From Phormidesmis sp. (GTDB lineage: Bacteria > Cyanobacteriota > Cyanobacteriia > Leptolyngbyales > Leptolyngbyaceae): a stretch of DNA of 64,000 nucleotides. A program made the position numbers. The stretch is taken from assembly GCA_965248535.1 (NCBI GenBank), contig CBDFJR010000002.1, positions 2,336,001 through 2,400,000 on the forward strand, in the 5' to 3' direction. Shown piece by piece: positions 42,801 through 48,800 of this stretch; positions within the stretch are counted from its first letter, which is position 1, and each line of letters starts with the position of its first letter.

Positions 42801-45800
42801 ATCCGATAAAACCCTTTGATTGTCTGTAGAAATCGCTGGTTTGGATCATTTCTATTGGCAGAGCGAGATCGCACCGACTTCATCTCGATCGCTTGTTGTT
42901 AGTGAGTGTGTTAATGAGAGTAGCGATCGCACGAATTAAACCTGCCGTAGCGTTGATGGGCTTTTCGGTAGTGCCGAGAAATAGAGTCAGGACGAGCACC
43001 CAGGAGAGCGGATTGGTTGGGTCAATCGGAATCTGGGGCAAAGTCGTGGGGAGTTGAGGCTCGATCGATTGAATGGGTTGGTGGGAGTTTGACATGATTG
43101 AGAACCTTTTGAATTTCGACACTTCAAGGCTATGAGGACTGAGCGCGACAAAAAATACCCAACTGATCGAAGGTTTGTGGATTATGGTAGAAACTACGTA
43201 GAAGATTGATACTTGTGAGACAGTGTGCTTATGGAATGGGTGGAATTTCTGGAGGAGGTGGCAACAGAACACGAACTCTCCACTGATCAGAAGCAAGCTT
43301 TCATTGCACGGTTTGACCTTAAGAATTCTGCCAAGACCGAGAAACAGATTGCGAACCAAACGAAAGACAGCGAGGGTAACGATCTCTTCGCGGGAGAGGC
43401 TGCGTTCAAGAAGCTGATGACCCAGGTGTATCGCAAGCTACAACCGCTTTGTCCAGAACTGGAAACCTCATCGCGAGGAAAACAGCCGAAGCTAAAAGCT
43501 TTCTTGCAGGCAAAGTTTAAGCAGCGTCAGTCGATTCCAGATCCGCCCATTCCTAGAAGTAGCTCAGAAGCGATTCCTGAATCCTCCACACTTGAGTTGC
43601 CCCCGCTCAGAAATCAACAGAATATACCAGGCAATGGGCAGGGAATCCAGATCAACGACGCACAAGCGCCAGTCATAGCTGGTGCTAATCCAGTGGTGAA
43701 CATACATCTACGTGAGGGTAGGGCTGACACTTATAAAAAGACAATTTTGATGTTAGCAGCTAGTCCTGAAAGCGCTACAAAGCCACGATGGAGAGAAGAA
43801 CTCAAAAAAATTAGGGGCGCGGTAGATAGAGCTAAAAGCGATGGAAGATTTGAAGTACAAGACAGGTCTTATATAGGCTCATCCGATCTGTCTGAGGAGC
43901 TAACAAAGCTCACACCTTTTGTTATTCACATTTCTGGATGTGTAGATGGAGTCGAGAGGCTATTTCTCAAAGATACTGGTCAAAATATTGACAATAGTAG
44001 CCGAAAGGAATTGATAGGTGATCTGTTCAAGGAGCACGTAGAGGCAAAGAAAATAGATTGTGTCATTCTGAGCGGCTGCTACCTAGAAGAACAGACTAGA
44101 GAAATTGTTCAGCATATTAACTTCGTAATTGGAATTACTGCTGATCTCGAAGAAGTACACGCTGTCCAATTTCTAAATGAATTCTATTATCAGCTAGCTT
44201 CAGGTCGAGAAATAGAGGCTTCATATCGTCTCGGTTATAACCTTATTAAAAGAGAAGGTTGTTCTGAAGAACTTTCCTTACCCCGACTTTTTACTAAAAA
44301 TGATGAGGTAAGACGTAGAGATTTAGAAAAAGAGTTAGATATTTGCCTTAAGCAGATAGAGAAGGATCCGAGCAATGTACAACTCCGGAAGAAGAAAGCC
44401 AGTCTATTAACAGATTTAGGTCGTATAGATGAAGTAGACGATGCCTATGAAAAAGTATCTTCACTTGATCCTGAAAACCCTAGCATTCGAGTTCAACAAG
44501 GAGATGCGCTAGAGCAATTAGGAGATCATAAGAAAGCAAATGCTGCTTATGAAAAAGCCCTTGAGCTAGACGAGAAAGATTACAAAGTTTGGTGGAAAAA
44601 GGCTAGAGTACTTGTCAAAGCTGGAAAGAATATGGAGGCTGGAGAATGTTACAAAAACGCTCTCTCGCTTCTGCCGCCTTCGCCAGACAATTATGTAATC
44701 TGTAGAGAATATGGTAATGCGTTAGGCAGACTGGAGCAATTTTACGAAAGTATACTGCTATACCAAACATCGCTGTGCTTACAGCCTAACTACCGCATTG
44801 CTAATCATGACAAGAAGCAGGTATACAAAAAAATCTACGCCAAAAAATGATAATGTTTACGTAGTGAGGTACTATCTACGGTAGAGCATCTGTAGAAACT
44901 ATTAATTTCCATTGACTAAGTGCGATGGTGTATTCCGAAGAAAACTATAGCCCCCACAGTTTAAAGTTCAAAGGGGTGCTACCCTTGTGTAGTGAGCTAC
45001 CACGGGTTAGGCAGAGAACGTAAATACGTTCTACAGATGTTCTGTTTCTTGTAAGAAAGAATCATTCAGTGGCTCTTCGCGAAAAGTTCCTGACTAGTTT
45101 TGAAAATGTACATTCGCGGGTCTGAAGTCAGCTCAACGCTATTTCTATGTCAGAGCTGTGATGAGCTGAGAAAACTTTTTTTCGATCTCAAAGAACCAAG
45201 AGACGTAGCTGACCTCCTAGAAGTTTCTTATGGTAAGTTGATTTATCATATCTCAAGACTCCCTGAAAACAGGAGGTATGTAGATTTTTCAATCCTCAAA
45301 AAGTCGGGAAAATCTCGAATAATATCAGCTCCTTGTACACCATTGAAAATTTTACAGAGAAAGCTGAGTCAAGTTCTTTATAGTGTCTATGAACCGAAAG
45401 TGACCGTACATGGTTTTGTGCCTGCTAGAAGCATTTTGACAAATGCAGAACAGCACGTACACAAAAGGTTTATACTAAACATTGATTTAAAAGATTTTTT
45501 TCATAGTATCCATTTTGGACGAGTCCGAGGGATATTTACGAAGCCACCTTACAATCTTTCCAGCGAAGTTTCCACGACCTTGGCTAAAATTTGTTGCTAT
45601 TTGGGAAGGCTACCGCAAGGCGCTCCAACATCGCCAATCGTTTCTAATATGATCTGTGCGCGCATGGATAGCGAACTGCGAAAGTTGGCGCAAGAATTCA
45701 AATGCACATGCTACACAAGATATGCTGACGATATAACCTTCTCTACAACTCTATCAAAATTTCCAGGCGAACTAGCATATACAGAAATAGAGGTTGATAC

Positions 45801-48800
45801 GGATGTATCAAAAATTGCTTTAGGAGCAAGACTGAGATTGATAATTCAAAATAATGGTTTTGAAGTTAATGAGAGTAAGGTTCGACTACAGTACAAGAAT
45901 CAACATCAGGAAGTCACAGGCTTAACTGTTAATAAATTTCCTAATGTGAAACGGAGTTTTGTACGCGAAATTAGCTCCATGCTTTATGCCTGGGACAAAT
46001 TTGGATTAGAATCGACAGAGCAAAGATACCACGCTAAGTATGCTCAGGATATCGATAAATCTGGTCATAAACCCCCTCCGTTTAAAGAGATTCCTTCATT
46101 TGAGGAGGTATTGCGAGGAAAGATTAATTTTCTCGGTATGGTTAGAGGCAAAGATAACGAAATTTATCGCACGTACTCAGAATGGTTTCGTGCGCTTTCA
46201 AAAAGAGAGTCGGCTAATTAGTAGTTGCAGCTTAACCTAGCATGACAGCGAGCTAGGCAATTTTCTGCACATTAGACAAAAACTGCTAGCTACTACCTCT
46301 CCTAGATCGCTATCCTCAATACCATCTCTCACCGCAATCGCGCCACGCTGTATCCCACAATCGTACATCTCGGCGGAACCGCAGCCGTCCGAGGCATGGT
46401 CGATGCCATGCGCGAAGTCTGCAACCAGTGGAAGTAATGATAGAACGTTCAAGCAGGCTAAAATACAAACACTTTTCGAGGTGAATCATGATTGAAATCA
46501 CGATCGAGGAAATCTCAGAAGATCTGTCCGCCTATCTACAGCGAGTTCAGGCAGGAGAAAGCTTTGTCGTGTTGCAAGCAGGAACCCCCGTTGCCCAAGT
46601 TGTGCCACCGCAGCCGAAAGTGAAATCGGATCGGGGAAAAGATTTTCTAGAATCCCTAGCCAAATTTCAAGAGGAGATGCTTGCTGAAGGGATTGATCTC
46701 GACCCCGACGAGATCTTTAAAGATGTCAGAGATCGCACTCCTGCCCCCGAACGTCCGAGGTGGTAGACTTGCGCTTTCTTCTTGACACGAACACGATCTC
46801 AGAACTATTCAGGCTTCAGCCCAACTCATCTATTGCAACAAAATACGCGCAAAATATCGATGATATTGCGATCGCATCTGTGACCTGGCATGAGCTACTT
46901 TACGGCTTTCATCGTTTACCAACTTCTCGAAGAAAAGAAGAATTGGGCTTCTTCCTGCGTCAGATTATCCGCCCCAACGTTTCGATCCTAGATTATGGTG
47001 AGGACGAAGCAGAGTGGTTCGCAAGTGAGCGGGCAAGGCTCACCGGAACGGGACGAATGCCTTCGTATGCAGACGGGCAAATTGCAGCAATCGCTGCTGT
47101 CCACAATCTTATTCTCGTCACTAGAAATGTTTCTGATTATTCTGATTTTTCAGGGTTAGCGATCGAGAACTGGTTTGAATGATTTTGCAGCGATCGCTGG
47201 ATGACATGAAAGATCTTTTGCGATCGCAGTAGTACCGATCAGGTTGACTTGGCTTGTCTAGTCACTCTACTTCGCAATTACTGAAAGCGACAGCAACTCC
47301 TTGGTCTCAAACCCGAATAAAAACAGCGGCTCATTCAACTCCTCAACATTGCCTATTTTTGACTCACTCATCGCAGCCACCGCAATTCACTGGGGACTAC
47401 GCCTAGTCACTCGCAACGAAGAAGACTTCGACAGAACGGGACTCACGATTATGAGTCCGTTTAACCTTTAACTTGATCGTACATCTCGGTGGAGAAGCCG
47501 CCATCAGAAGCATGGTCGATGCCATGCGCGACATCTGCCAACAATGGAAGTAGAAGATTTTGAATTTGAGGATGATTGAAAGAGATCCACCCTAACCGTT
47601 CCAATTAGTTCTGCCGAATTCTGAAGGATCGTGCCCTTCGCTATAATTCAAGCATGGCAATTGTGGGATGAAGATCAATGCAAGCCTCCACCGAGCAACT
47701 CTTAAAAGCAATTGAGCAACTGCCTCAGCAGGAGTTGGATGCGTTCGTTGAGCAAGTTCTAAAACTTCGCGCTCAACGACAAGTTCCCCACCTACCGCAA
47801 CTAGAGTCCGAGCTATTGCTCAAAATTAACTATAGTCTTCCGACTTCATTGCGAACCAGATTTGGCGAACTCGTCGCCAAGCGGCAAGAACTCACCATCA
47901 CCGACGCAGAACTCGCAGAACTCATTGAGATCACCGACGCAAGTGAGCAACTCAATGCTGAAAGAATTGCAGCGATCTCTGAGTTAGCAAAATTAAGACA
48001 TCAAACTCTAGACCAGGTAATGCAAGATTTAGGAATTCACCCTCCTGCCTGTGTCTAACGATCGTGTCACAGCAGAACAGCGTCGGATCGTCATTGCCAG
48101 AGCCAAGCAATGCTGCGAATATTGCTACAGTTAGGTAAAATTTGCAACAGACTCATTTTCCGTAGAACACATCCTTCCGCGTAACAAAGGTGGAGCGACT
48201 GTCCTGGATAATCTGGCGTTATCTTGTCAAGGCTGCAATAACTTCAAGCACGTCAAAACGGAAGCACTTGGTCCTCCCAGGGAACAGGTTGTGCCTCTCT
48301 TTCACCCTCAACAACAAATCTGGCGAGAGCATTTTGTCTGGAATGACGACTATACCTTGGTGATTGGAATCACACCCATAGGACGGATCACGGTAAACGA
48401 ACTGAGGCTAAATCGGGCTGGACTAATGAATCTTCGCCGCGTTCTTTTTGCAACGAGTGAGCATCCGCCTCTTGATTCGCTTCCTCTGTCTGACTTATAA
48501 CGTCGATCGTGATGGCAACTTTTGAGACGCGGATCGAACCTACCGCAGTTTCTGCCGGGTTTTCTGGCGCTGTCGTTGTTGAGCTTGATGTCTTCGAGAA
48601 GTGCGCTCCGGTTGATACGCTGCCTGAACTGTCAGTTTGATATAGGCATTCGTCTTATCATCTCCTTGAACCTCTCGCATCCACTGAACATACGGACTTT
48701 GCTGGAGCAGTTGATTGACGGCTTGCCGAAGTTCTCGTGAGGGTAACTTTTCTCGTTTTCCGTCTGAAATTGCCAGTCGCACCACTTTCTCATCCTGCTT

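Follow-up and report, generated by a model that had tools for sequence, protein, structure and literature searches.

The question raised by positions 43231-46221 of the 64,000-nucleotide stretch of Phormidesmis sp. DNA analysed here (the window) is whether a 539-aa gene, a 157-nt structured noncoding RNA (ncRNA; 44885-45041), and an unfused retron reverse transcriptase (RT) of 371/373 aa, which follow one another there, act as a single system, and what the upstream protein contributes to it. The locus is a retron, that is, an RT with its own small RNA template. On balance, we favor reading it as a three-part retron that belongs to a clade-8, type XI-like family and travels as cargo of a conjugative element, with the 539-aa protein as the cognate partner. 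As judged by ORF reading, partner, ncRNA, and RT are all intact and open in the window. The locus is flanked by genes for a type IV secretion system coupling protein (38293-40218) and a MobA/VirD2 relaxase (49176-50285, minus strand); no tRNA was found within the window. The two protein-coding genes are as follows.

43231..44850, + strand: partner gene; ORF of 539 aa from ATG 43231 (541 aa from GTG 43225 also possible)
45100..46221, + strand: unfused retron RT; ORF of 373 aa from TTG 45100 or 371 aa from ATG 45106

The reverse transcriptase and its constant neighbor

PADLOC searches with the RT returned retron RT models for all of the best 25 matches, among them RT-Protease_XI (5.5e-134, profile positions 5-324 of 510), RT-TIR_XII (3.2e-126), and RT-Toprim_I-C (1.6e-118, positions 3-311 of 529). 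The figures given in the survey's finding were thus reproduced, with the matches confined to the RT part of the fused profiles. The ORF stops 4 residues past the RT-Protease_XI match and carries no C-terminal fusion. Pfam identifies RVT_1 at 9.8e-22, and the translation of 45100-46221 shows NAEQH, VTG, and YADD, which correspond to the retron motifs NAxxH and VTG, as named in PMC13712802, and to the catalytic YADD. The RT is present in one copy in its own genome. In the RT tree, the partner-linked loci and L006 form one clade (SH-aLRT 100), which is cyanobacterial and nests among fused type XI, XII, and I-C RTs, where the deep branches are weakly supported.

The seven closest RT loci (L001-L007, 59-81% identity) are all unfused. 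An upstream-gene homologue is encoded in six of them; in the seventh (L006), the contig has just 305 nt before the RT. This updates an earlier count of five in six. The three parts recur in 18 other loci, 11 from genome contigs and 7 from metagenome contigs, with the partner gene directly upstream of ncRNA and RT; it is present in 18 of 18 loci outside the window in which the ncRNA motif occurs and the upstream DNA can be read. Most of these loci are MAG or metagenome contigs, some of them possibly redundant with one another. All seven metagenome loci were retrieved by the RNA motif and carry both partner and RT, and a reciprocal scan starting from the partner protein gave nine loci with an RT in every one. 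Distances between partner cores correlate with those between RTs (r 0.92; Mantel, 0/5000), which shows co-inheritance and is not evidence of binding.

This constancy bears on a different reading, already raised as an alternative in the survey's finding, in which RT and ncRNA are a two-part unit, the TPR gene is an unrelated neighbor, and the effector role falls to the Phd/PIN (VapC-type) pair downstream or to something encoded elsewhere. Both the Phd (46488-46766) and the PIN (46760-47182) gene do lie on the RT strand, 270 nt downstream, and PIN genes are also close to the RT in L002 and L005. However, the nearest relative, L001, keeps the retron with the PIN gene precisely missing, the window PIN has no homologue by tblastn in 10 of the 11 other genome loci, and it is the TPR gene that accompanies the RT wherever upstream DNA can be read and that diverges along with it. 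We give this reading very little credence.

The msr-msd RNA

The features of the spacer between the two genes are listed below.

44870..44875, + strand: -10-like box TACTAT, a putative promoter, 9 nt upstream of the ncRNA
44885..45041, + strand: msr-msd ncRNA; covariance-model match of 157 nt and 130.7 bits, the window being a training member of the model
44885..44896, + strand: a1 arm AGCATCTGTAGA, including G44895, a candidate branching G
44900..44903, + strand: 5' strand of the inner helix, TATT, pairing with 45023-45026 (AATA)
44909..44928, + strand: msr hairpin CCATTG-ACTAAGTG-CGATGG; 6 pairs, 100% paired
44950..45012, + strand: hypervariable region, presumed msd stem-loop, which folds as a hairpin; conserved GGCAGAGAACGTAAATA follows
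45030..45041, + strand: a2 arm TCTACAGATGTT, from repeat search and covariation

The RNA is bounded by an exact 11-nt inverted repeat, CATCTGTAGAA (44887-44897) and TTCTACAGATG (45029-45039), that stretches to 15 bp with one G-U pair (44883-44897/45029-45043). Folding of 44880-45046 closes a1/a2 at -50.8 kcal/mol (z -3.74), with 0 of 200 shuffles as good; the minimum-energy fold of the full 249-nt spacer leaves a1/a2 unpaired (z -1.99). The ncRNA sequences of 11 loci each fold with a closed a1/a2 stem (z -1.6 to -4.2). Exact repeats of 10-14 nt with compensated differences, as claimed earlier, are present in 7 of 7 loci (window, L001-L005, and L007). An Rfam search of the ncRNA matched no family.

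Pairing over 22 pairs in the 11 loci is 98.3%, with compensatory change in 8 of them, a result reached by none of 500 shuffles, with slid controls at 28-50%. When 14 nontraining sequences were added, the resulting 26 rows were 93.1% paired versus 74.4% after shuffling, with 23 of 26 pairs compensated, in an alignment fitted to the covariance model, which favors structure. Compensatory change affects 6 of the 12 a1/a2 pairs in the 11 loci and 11 of them in the 26 sequences. The inner helix (4 pairs) is 100% paired in the 11 loci, its last pair being CG in seven, UA in three, and GC in one. Compensated variants of the msr hairpin occur in L002 and L097, and the same hairpin and loop motif can be seen upstream of Pseudomonas RT-protease (type XI) genes. 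The variable msd part spans 29-47 nt between conserved flanks in the 11 loci; the GCCC/GGGC helix at its base is only 60.7% paired in the wider 26-sequence set and poorly supported outside the clade. Nontraining matches of the covariance model (E < 0.001) all lie on the RT strand directly 5' of an RT gene, fused type XI and I-C loci included. Covariation, PADLOC matches, and synteny together uphold the earlier description of a retron: the msr-msd covaries and is bounded by a1/a2, the RT is unfused and of the type XI/XII/I-C clade, and the upstream partner gene is conserved.

With regard to the candidate branching nucleotide, 25 of 26 sequences retain the G-C pair at the G44895 column, but this G is predicted to be paired; G is the base immediately following the inner stem in 6 of 11 loci, and the other 5 have no G there. 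A TAnnnT hexamer is found at the place equivalent to the -10-like box in 11 of 11 loci, and a consensus promoter scan did not report the TACTAT box of the window.

A partner protein with a conserved body and an exchangeable head

The structure model of the partner (mean pLDDT 80.5) divides into four parts.

43231..43533, + strand: aa 1-101, N-terminal head, helical, tentatively LuxR/GerE/sigma-70 region 4-like helix-turn-helix (HTH) by fold match
43534..43728, + strand: aa 102-166, low-confidence linker (pLDDT <50), poorly conserved in the alignment
43729..44265, + strand: aa ~167-345, CHAT-like caspase-fold domain by sequence and structure homology
44296..44847, + strand: aa ~356-539, TPR repeats by Pfam and structure model

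The C-terminal repeats match Pfam TPR_8, TPR_1, and TPR_2 at ~1e-13 and are modeled as helical repeats with pLDDT >90, for which Foldseek returns TPR superhelices; PADLOC finds only a TPR model (0.002) in the partner protein. For the CHAT-like domain, a phmmer search of 1.84 billion representatives returned 7386 matches, and Pfam CHAT (PF12770) covers the matched stretch in 20 of 25 scanned relatives. Its best PDB match is the SAVED-CHAT structure 8tl0 (sequence E 0.0029, Foldseek E 1.5e-6); a Pfam scan of the window protein returned no CHAT match, the domain falling below detection.

Residue 237, the position of the GHG-motif histidine in VHFSGHG, is cysteine in the window protein, and the "IGHG" of 8tl0 aligns with "ISG--C". 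The histidine at this position, after strand 3, is what we take to be the catalytic histidine of the CHAT/caspase fold. It is found in 0 of 20 retron-linked rows versus 122 of 176 other family rows, whereas Cys283, at the place of the catalytic cysteine after strand 4 and aligned with the cysteine of "LNAC" in 8tl0, is kept in 20 of 20. By its alignment, the middle domain is a CHAT homologue that has lost the canonical catalytic histidine. Of the "CHAT protease" described in the survey's finding, the homology stands and the protease label is not supported; the proposed His233/Cys283 dyad rested on the first, noncatalytic histidine of VHFSGHG.

It might still be proposed that the CHAT-like domain is itself an active protease effector using a noncanonical dyad (His233, or Cys237 with Cys283), which would make the locus a split RT-protease retron of caspase rather than trypsin type. 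Homology to CHAT and the RT-protease profiles nearest to the RT fit such a proposal, as does Cys283; since this residue is invariant despite the missing histidine, some thiol chemistry may persist. Against it, the canonical histidine is absent from every retron-linked row, seven of the 20 rows have D, N, C, or Y in place of His233, the window protein lacks a Pfam CHAT match, and relatives place an intact protease head, trypsin or, in L088, canonical CHAT, before the domain, which would be redundant if the CHAT-like core were the protease. An active CHAT-like protease is accordingly judged quite unlikely.

These heads are exchanged between relatives. Most carry a trypsin-like (Trypsin_2) head with a Trypco1 gene upstream, and the H/D/S triad motifs are present in all four heads read. 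L088 has an N-terminal canonical CHAT head with its dyad intact, accompanied by a Trypco2 gene, and some other relatives have an EAD4 adaptor as head. The trypsin-headed relatives are in effect type XI retrons that supply the protease in trans, so that the earlier notion of a protease in a separate upstream gene fits most relatives but not the window with its HTH-like head. A Pfam scan of the window head matched nothing; the homologous head of L002 matches GerE at 3e-5, borderline at 24.0 bits for a cut-off of 23.5. A model of aa 1-109 (pLDDT 82.8) has its best fold matches among NarL/GerE/sigma-4 HTHs at Z 5-6, a middling score of a kind common for helical domains. The modeled head, single-copy in its own genome, tentatively looks like an HTH of LuxR/sigma-4 type and not the "adaptor-like" N terminus proposed earlier.

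An HTH is odd as an "effector," so the window copy may have lost a toxic output. On this account the cassette is degenerate or repurposed: the swap to an HTH head removed the toxic output and left a protein that only regulates cassette or element genes, with no abortive-infection defense. The window, L001, and L002 do form a derived subclade (SH-aLRT 99) within the mainly trypsin-headed RT clade, the HTH-like head lacks enzymatic features, and the retron block is 79% identical to L001 at the nucleotide level versus 92-95% for the element backbone, with no similarity to L001 in the head region in the nucleotide comparison. However, all three parts are open and intact, at least eight distinct metagenome proteins have the HTH-headed form, and HTH partners reportedly belong to the usual makeup of several described retron types. 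DNA-binding retron partners are mentioned in excerpts of Mestre 2020 (PMC7736814). We consider degeneration of the cassette unlikely.

Proposed mechanism and comparison with known systems

For the three-part retron with a cognate partner, which we prefer, we infer msDNA synthesis, binding between the parts, a trigger, an output, and a role in defense. The promoter-like box just past the partner stop codon would drive one transcript containing the msr-msd RNA and the RT gene, and with the variable msd hairpin as template and the conserved a1 G (candidate G44895) as priming site, the RT would make msDNA. The conserved partner body (His-less CHAT-like domain and TPRs) may dock on or sense RT-msDNA, and the exchangeable head would provide the output. 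By analogy with Eco2, a type I-C retron with which the RT clade is shared, the partner would be kept inactive as long as the msDNA is intact and would be freed once phage damages the msDNA. Because the window copy and its closest relatives have a LuxR/sigma-4-like head, the output there is probably binding to DNA or to the transcription machinery, not proteolysis.

Of the known systems, type XI as presented in excerpts of PMC7736814 is similar in that it supplies the best PADLOC RT profile and shares the clade-8 RT group. The msr hairpin, loop motif, and a1/a2 layout are as upstream of Pseudomonas RT-protease genes, and most sister loci encode a Trypsin_2 protease. In type XI, however, as described in those excerpts, the trypsin-like protease is fused to the RT C terminus, whereas here the RT ends after the RT domain, and relatives encode the protease upstream, as part of a separate protein that also has the His-less CHAT-like domain and TPRs and usually comes with a Trypco1 gene; an HTH-like head takes the place of the protease in the window. 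Type XI ncRNAs are reported as validated in Khan 2024 (10.1101/2024.01.25.577267), the lineage described here not being among those in the part of that source consulted.

Eco2 (Ec67), a type I-C RT-Toprim fusion, offers the only mechanistic model available for the clade: according to excerpts of PMC12916289, its msDNA cages the effector, which a phage nuclease releases. The RT clade is common to both systems and the ncRNA model also matches I-C loci, but the effector of Eco2 is, in the same excerpts, a fused Toprim nuclease, and here it would be a separate multidomain protein without a nuclease.

The cyanobacterial CHAT/TPR and EAD/Trypco conflict systems of Kaur et al. 2020 (PMC7159879, excerpts) and SAVED-CHAT 8tl0 share the short cyanobacterial CHAT subfamily, and the former also the EAD4, EAD10, Trypco1, and Trypco2 modules and the logic of head swapping. 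Those conflict systems are, in these excerpts, based on NTPases or cyclic-nucleotide sensors and not on retrons, which come up there only in a comparison of DGR reverse transcriptases; the core domain here also differs from Kaur et al. 2020 and SAVED-CHAT in lacking the catalytic histidine.

That the locus is covered by none of the 13 described types, as claimed earlier, is literally true, but protease-less type XI-like retrons with stand-alone accessories were published in September 2026 (Toro 2026, PMC13712802), and therefore the concept is not new. As here, that work describes unfused type XI-like RTs, stand-alone accessories, and de novo predicted a1/a2 ncRNAs 5' of the RT. The strings "TPR," "CHAT," and "cyanobacteri" are absent from its main text; its Supplement 5 lists eight cyanobacterial "typeXI" RTs, one with a TPR_16 neighbor, uncommented. 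The accessories there are WYL (Bacteroidota) and DnaB_C (Bacillota/Bacteroidota), and DnaB_C-linked loci also occur among the RT relatives examined here (L068, L072, and L075). By the TXI_C2like/TXI_noncan_h criterion (+/-2 genes), Pfam finds only TPR, Phd, and PIN among the RT's neighbors in the window, and neither WYL nor DnaB_C. With its head/CHAT-like/TPR protein, the cyanobacterial lineage described here differs from both lineages of PMC13712802.

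A partner gene, a non-coding RNA and a reverse transcriptase within a conjugative element

The retron block of the window lies between genes of a conjugative element, and its two protein-coding genes are separated by a spacer that holds the non-coding RNA.

Genes and other features of the block and its surroundings
38293-40218, type IV secretion coupling-protein gene, one flank of the block
43231-44850, plus strand, partner ORF, 539 aa from ATG
44885-45041, non-coding RNA (ncRNA, msr-msd), in the 249-nt spacer between the two ORFs
45100-46221, plus strand, reverse transcriptase (RT) ORF, 373 aa from TTG or 371 aa from the ATG at 45106
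46488-47182, Phd/PIN pair (Pfam)
47301-47471, 56-aa ORF, probably what is left of a second PIN toxin gene
49176-50285, minus strand, MobA/VirD2 relaxase gene, other flank of the block

No tRNA gene was found within the 64-kb window. The RT matched the PADLOC profiles RT-Protease_XI (5.5e-134, profile positions 5-324 of 510), RT-TIR_XII (3.2e-126) and RT-Toprim_I-C (1.6e-118), in each case confined to the RT part of the profile, which reproduces the figures of the survey. NAEQH, VTG and YADD can be read in its translation, and motifs of this type are criteria for retron RTs (PMC13712802, section 15). The RT gene is present in one copy in its own genome. PADLOC holds no model matching the partner protein, the Phd, the PIN or a 154-aa upstream ORF.

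Related RTs were collected by a scan of one genome per species, which gave 80 loci (relatives' loci carry L numbers). The seven closest (59-81% identity) are all cyanobacterial and all unfused, and a homologue of the partner gene lies upstream in six of them; the contig of the seventh, L006, stops 305 nt upstream of the RT. The association reported by the survey is confirmed. Below about 53% identity most loci encode fused RTs of 475-628 aa, the C-terminal parts of which cluster as 20 trypsin, 14 TIR and 11 Toprim-type. Scanning with the conserved RNA motif added four three-part genome loci (L083, L087, L088 and L089) and seven metagenome loci, all seven with both genes. A reciprocal scan from the partner-protein alignment, a limited sample based on one peptide pattern, returned nine loci, every one with an RT downstream and one of them new (L097). 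The three-part set thereby comprises the window and 18 loci, some of which may be metagenome contigs that duplicate MAG contigs. Because the flanking genes vary from locus to locus, the conserved block consists of partner gene, RNA and RT.

In a tree of 82 RTs, which excludes L008 and L055 (in-frame stops) and the duplicates L081, L082 and L084-L086, the 11 partner-linked RTs and that of L006 form a single clade (SH-aLRT 100). Next to it stand further unfused RTs of cyanobacteria (L015 and a Nostocales group in which a gene of about 290 aa lies downstream), and the fused I-C, XII and XI forms lie farther out; support for the deeper branches is weak. The partner core and the RT have correlated pairwise distances (r 0.92; Mantel test, 0/5000; 10 loci), which shows co-inheritance and not interaction.

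The survey had allowed for the PIN/VapC pair being either the real effector or an unrelated toxin-antitoxin pair. The PIN has no homologue in the other loci apart from a 33-bit match on the opposite strand in L002, which speaks against this role, and the Phd is shared by L001 only among the compared loci; the pair is outside the retron unit. The 56-aa ORF downstream of it matches solely the C-terminal end of PIN (profile positions 89-117 of 120, E 3.5e-4).

L001 carries the same conjugative-element backbone as the window. Across window positions 40243-50000 the flanks are 92-95% identical in DNA sequence, and the retron block (43563-46837) is merely 79% identical. The two share no similarity in the head region (43082-43562); L001 lacks precisely the PIN (46838-47142), and its copy of the element carries an inserted ISL3 transposase. 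These differences look like allelic exchange of defence cargo inside one element.

Other arrangements were encountered among the more distant unfused or split RTs. The Nostocales sister clade combines an unfused RT with a related upstream ncRNA (44-57 bits) and the conserved downstream gene, which gave no Pfam or PADLOC match in the two copies scanned (L009 and L013); it looks like another undescribed type XI-like architecture. In two Bacteroidota loci with unfused RTs of the same broad group, L040 and L074, an SF1 helicase gene (AAA_30/UvrD_C_2) lies upstream of the RT. In L076 a type I-C retron is divided into two ORFs, an RT (4959-6062) and an overlapping second ORF (6059-6679) that aligns with positions 353-549 of 552 of the fused profile, its Toprim half; the division is either a frameshift or a natural split.

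Genes beside the unfused RTs of these loci
L009:6052-6921, L010:6082-6924, L012:6099-6980, L013:6088-6966 and L014:6057-6956, downstream gene of about 290 aa, Nostocales clade
L040:3183-4523 and L074:3280-4662, SF1 helicase gene upstream of the RT
L040:5884-6645 and L074:6076-6780, gene for 234-253 aa without known family, directly downstream of the RT

The msr-msd RNA and its relatives

An exact inverted repeat, CATCTGTAGAA (a1, 44887-44897) and TTCTACAGATG (a2, 45029-45039), lies inside the spacer, as the survey had claimed, and can be extended to 15 bp with one G-U pair. In the RNA 44880-45046 the arms close a fold of -50.8 kcal/mol (z -3.74; 0 of 200 shuffles as good); the pairing appears in this trimmed RNA only, the minimum-energy fold of the whole 249-nt spacer being without it. 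An Rfam search of 42000-48000 (evalue mode) returned nothing but a chance snoRNA match on the other strand.

Aligned across 11 loci (alignment A3), the 5' half of the RNA is almost invariant and consists of a1, an inner strand TAT(C/T/G) and a hairpin CCATTG-loop-CGATGG. There follows a hypervariable stretch of 29-47 nt, which folds as a hairpin, and a 3' part that is conserved again, GGGCAGARAACGTRRATA and then a2. A structure of 22 pairs is paired in 98.3% of cells over the 11 loci, with eight pairs changed on both sides; none of 500 shuffles equalled it, and slid controls reached 28-50%. L097 carries a fully compensated variant of the hairpin (CTATTG/CAATAG). Pair counts were taken from A3 and from a model-fitted alignment (A7), and not from a MAFFT alignment of 12 sequences (A5) in which the 3' end of a1 is misaligned in three rows.

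A TAnnnT box stands 9-15 nt upstream of a1 in all 11 loci, and this -10-like box is the putative ncRNA promoter; a consensus promoter scan called no site upstream of the ncRNA. In L004 (1770-1803) the box is moved farther from the RNA by a stretch of about 16 nt duplicated in tandem (gaggctaatgcatct, two copies), which lies immediately before a1 and overlaps its beginning.

A covariance model trained on 12 sequences gave matches beyond its training set that are full-length, lie on the RT strand and end just upstream of the RT gene; its minus-strand matches are solely palindromic self-matches of training loci with far weaker scores. The Nostocales group and L015 scored 44-57 bits, and matches were also found upstream of I-C loci (L039, L041, L030 and L020) and of Pseudomonas RT-protease loci, of which L051 reached 38 bits (E 1.4e-5) and four more about 31 bits.

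Matches of the ncRNA model at Pseudomonas RT-protease loci
L044:4852-4980
L045
L050:4792-4922
L051:2465-2595
L057:4852-4982

At the fused type XI and I-C loci the a1/a2 arms of the matches read GGGCTCGGGGC/GCCCCGAAGCCC, and the loop motif of the msr hairpin is the same. In A7, which holds 26 matches with E<0.001 and, being fitted to the model, favours the structure, 93.1% of cells are paired against 74.4% when shuffled, and 23 of 26 pairs are compensated; pairing reaches 98% in the a1/a2 helix and 100% in the msr hairpin. At the foot of the variable hairpin a GCCC/GGGC helix can be seen by eye in the clade but fails in the wider set, with 60.7% paired; it is not claimed. G44895 in a1 is kept in 25 of the 26 sequences and, though predicted to be paired, is a candidate branching G.

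The Pseudomonas rows share the hairpin and the loop motif TCCACTGACTATATGCGGTGG, and the RNA of the window is therefore tied to canonical type XI. For this type, Mestre 2020 (PMC7736814) reports no recognisable ncRNA, and Khan 2024 (10.1101/2024.01.25.577267) describes ncRNAs of "clade 8, type XI" as validated. The RNA family as such is therefore probably not new; the ncRNA at fused XI and I-C loci is probably known too, and the comparison across the clade may be new.

A CHAT-like core with exchangeable heads

Pfam recognises only TPRs in the partner protein. A structure model from 16 homologues (pLDDT 80.5) has a helical head (residues 1-101), a disordered linker (102-166), an alpha/beta domain (167 to about 345) and TPR helices from there to the C-terminus. 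Residues 151-375 gave 7386 matches among 1.84 billion protein representatives, and Pfam CHAT covers the matched stretch in 20 of 25 scanned matches. The CHAT-carrying relatives show architectures typical of cyanobacterial conflict systems, with caspase, TIR, nSTAND, AAA_35, EAD1, SAVED and TRADD-like N-terminal domains, and among solved structures the SAVED-CHAT filament 8tl0 is matched best (sequence E 0.0029; Foldseek E 1.5e-6). Since CHAT is found in the relatives and 8tl0 is matched, the middle domain is CHAT-like by sequence and predicted fold.

The survey had described a CHAT protease with the dyad His233/Cys283. The CHAT homology stands, as does Cys283, which is kept in 20 of 20 retron-linked rows (L001 and the metagenome protein P0004 being the same protein); the dyad does not. 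The family motif reads VHFSGHG ... LNACYS, and "IGHG" of 8tl0 is aligned with "ISG--C" of the window. His233 corresponds to the first His of this motif, and 7 of the 20 rows carry another residue there. The His of G-H-G, which we take to be the catalytic one of the caspase-hemoglobinase fold, corresponds to residue 237 after SG, a Cys in the window; among the other domain rows, 122 of 176 have His at this position, and none of the 20 retron-linked rows does. Because the retron-linked rows lack this His, the core is most likely not a canonical protease.

The region in front of the core differs in kind between loci.

N-terminal heads of partner proteins and the small gene upstream (five loci are cut by contig ends)
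Trypsin_2, full-length: L003, L005, L087, L089, L103, L105 (also EAD10) and L107; Trypco1 upstream in six of seven, the L107 contig starting too close
Trypsin_2, partial: L004 and L083
Canonical CHAT with intact GHG and SAC motifs: L088; Trypco2 upstream
EAD4: L001 and two metagenome proteins; no upstream small gene found
HTH-like: window, L002 and six further metagenome proteins; no upstream small gene found
No recognised class: L007; no upstream small gene found

All four trypsin heads read contain the H, D and S motifs of the triad. The window head has no Pfam match; the homologous head of L002 scores 24.0 bits for GerE (cut-off 23.5), and the best matches of a model of residues 1-109 (pLDDT 82.8) among 48,161 chains are NarL, GerE and sigma-70 region 4 HTHs, at Z 5-6, a level that is common for helical domains. 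With Z just 5-6 and L002 so near the cut-off, the assignment as an HTH is tentative. As a test for adaptor-like behaviour, a second copy of the window head was sought in its own genome and not found at E<=0.01; nor was a second EAD4 found in the L001 genome, which is a MAG whose completeness is unknown.

The window groups with L001 and L002 in the RT tree, as a derived sub-clade (SH-aLRT 99) within a mostly trypsin-headed clade, so that the protease head is likely ancestral and the HTH and EAD4 heads replacements. Heads can also be stacked, since in L105 (2522-4519, minus strand) one protein carries a trypsin head and, between head and core, an EAD10 adaptor domain. In L083 (720-2661, contig coverage 2.6x) several ORFs, among them a trypsin fragment, a piece of 138 aa and a TPR part, stand in place of an intact partner gene, through either sequencing error or decay.

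Possible mechanism and comparison with known retrons

The entity is well supported: its anatomy, the conserved synteny, the covarying RNA, the homologies, the missing His and the exchange of heads are shown, and the mechanism that follows is inferred. The ncRNA and RT would be transcribed together from their own promoter, and the RT would copy the variable hairpin into msDNA; the CHAT-like/TPR body may dock on or monitor the RT-msDNA, with the head as the output of the partner protein. The sole mechanism known for this RT clade is that of Eco2 (PMC12916289), where degradation of the msDNA by a phage endonuclease ends the caging of a fused nuclease by an msDNA scaffold. By analogy, caging and release of the Eco2 kind are taken as the working model for the cassette. 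The trypsin-headed majority would then amount to a type XI retron with its protease in trans; the output of the window would be the HTH, that is, binding of DNA or of the transcription machinery, or this copy may have lost a toxic output. A more far-reaching reading, to which we give somewhat less than even credence, is that of a distinct cyanobacterial retron type in which the RT-msDNA controls a pseudo-caspase/TPR scaffold with exchangeable heads (trypsin with Trypco1, CHAT with Trypco2, EAD4, EAD10 and HTH), and which would be the first case of a retron connected to the "apoptosis-like" network of adaptor and protease modules in multicellular bacteria, including variants that recruit remote effectors through death-domain-like adaptors or act on transcription.

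The locus shows a route by which a retron family can shift its effector out of the RT gene and onto a separate scaffold protein, the output head of which is swapped between serine protease, caspase-type protease, adaptor domains and HTH. Retrons are thereby linked to the effector-associated-domain and Trypco modules hitherto described only for NTPase-based cyanobacterial conflict systems. The natural series of head swaps, some within one conjugative-element backbone (window and L001), could tell the msDNA-sensing from the acting part, and the trypsin-headed relatives are an obvious entry to the biochemistry of protease use in type XI.

None of the 13 types of Mestre 2020 fits the architecture, since the RT-protease fusion that defines type XI is missing, and on this point the survey was right. 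Searches of the accessible literature (subscription papers and preprint supplements being outside reach) turned up no retron described as having a partner of the CHAT-like/TPR, Trypco or EAD kind. In Toro 2026 (mSystems, September 2026; PMC13712802), 207 of 232 type XI-like RTs are without a protease; its main text makes no mention of TPR, CHAT or cyanobacteria, and its supplementary table lists, without comment, eight cyanobacterial "typeXI" RTs, one with a TPR_16 neighbour. The two lineages described there have stand-alone WYL or DnaB_C accessories and predicted ncRNAs and belong to the Bacteroidota and Bacillota, whereas the lineage of the window has a CHAT-like/TPR partner and is cyanobacterial. 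Beside these two, published in 2026, it is a third type XI-like lineage that is protease-less at the RT, and it comes from a different phylum.
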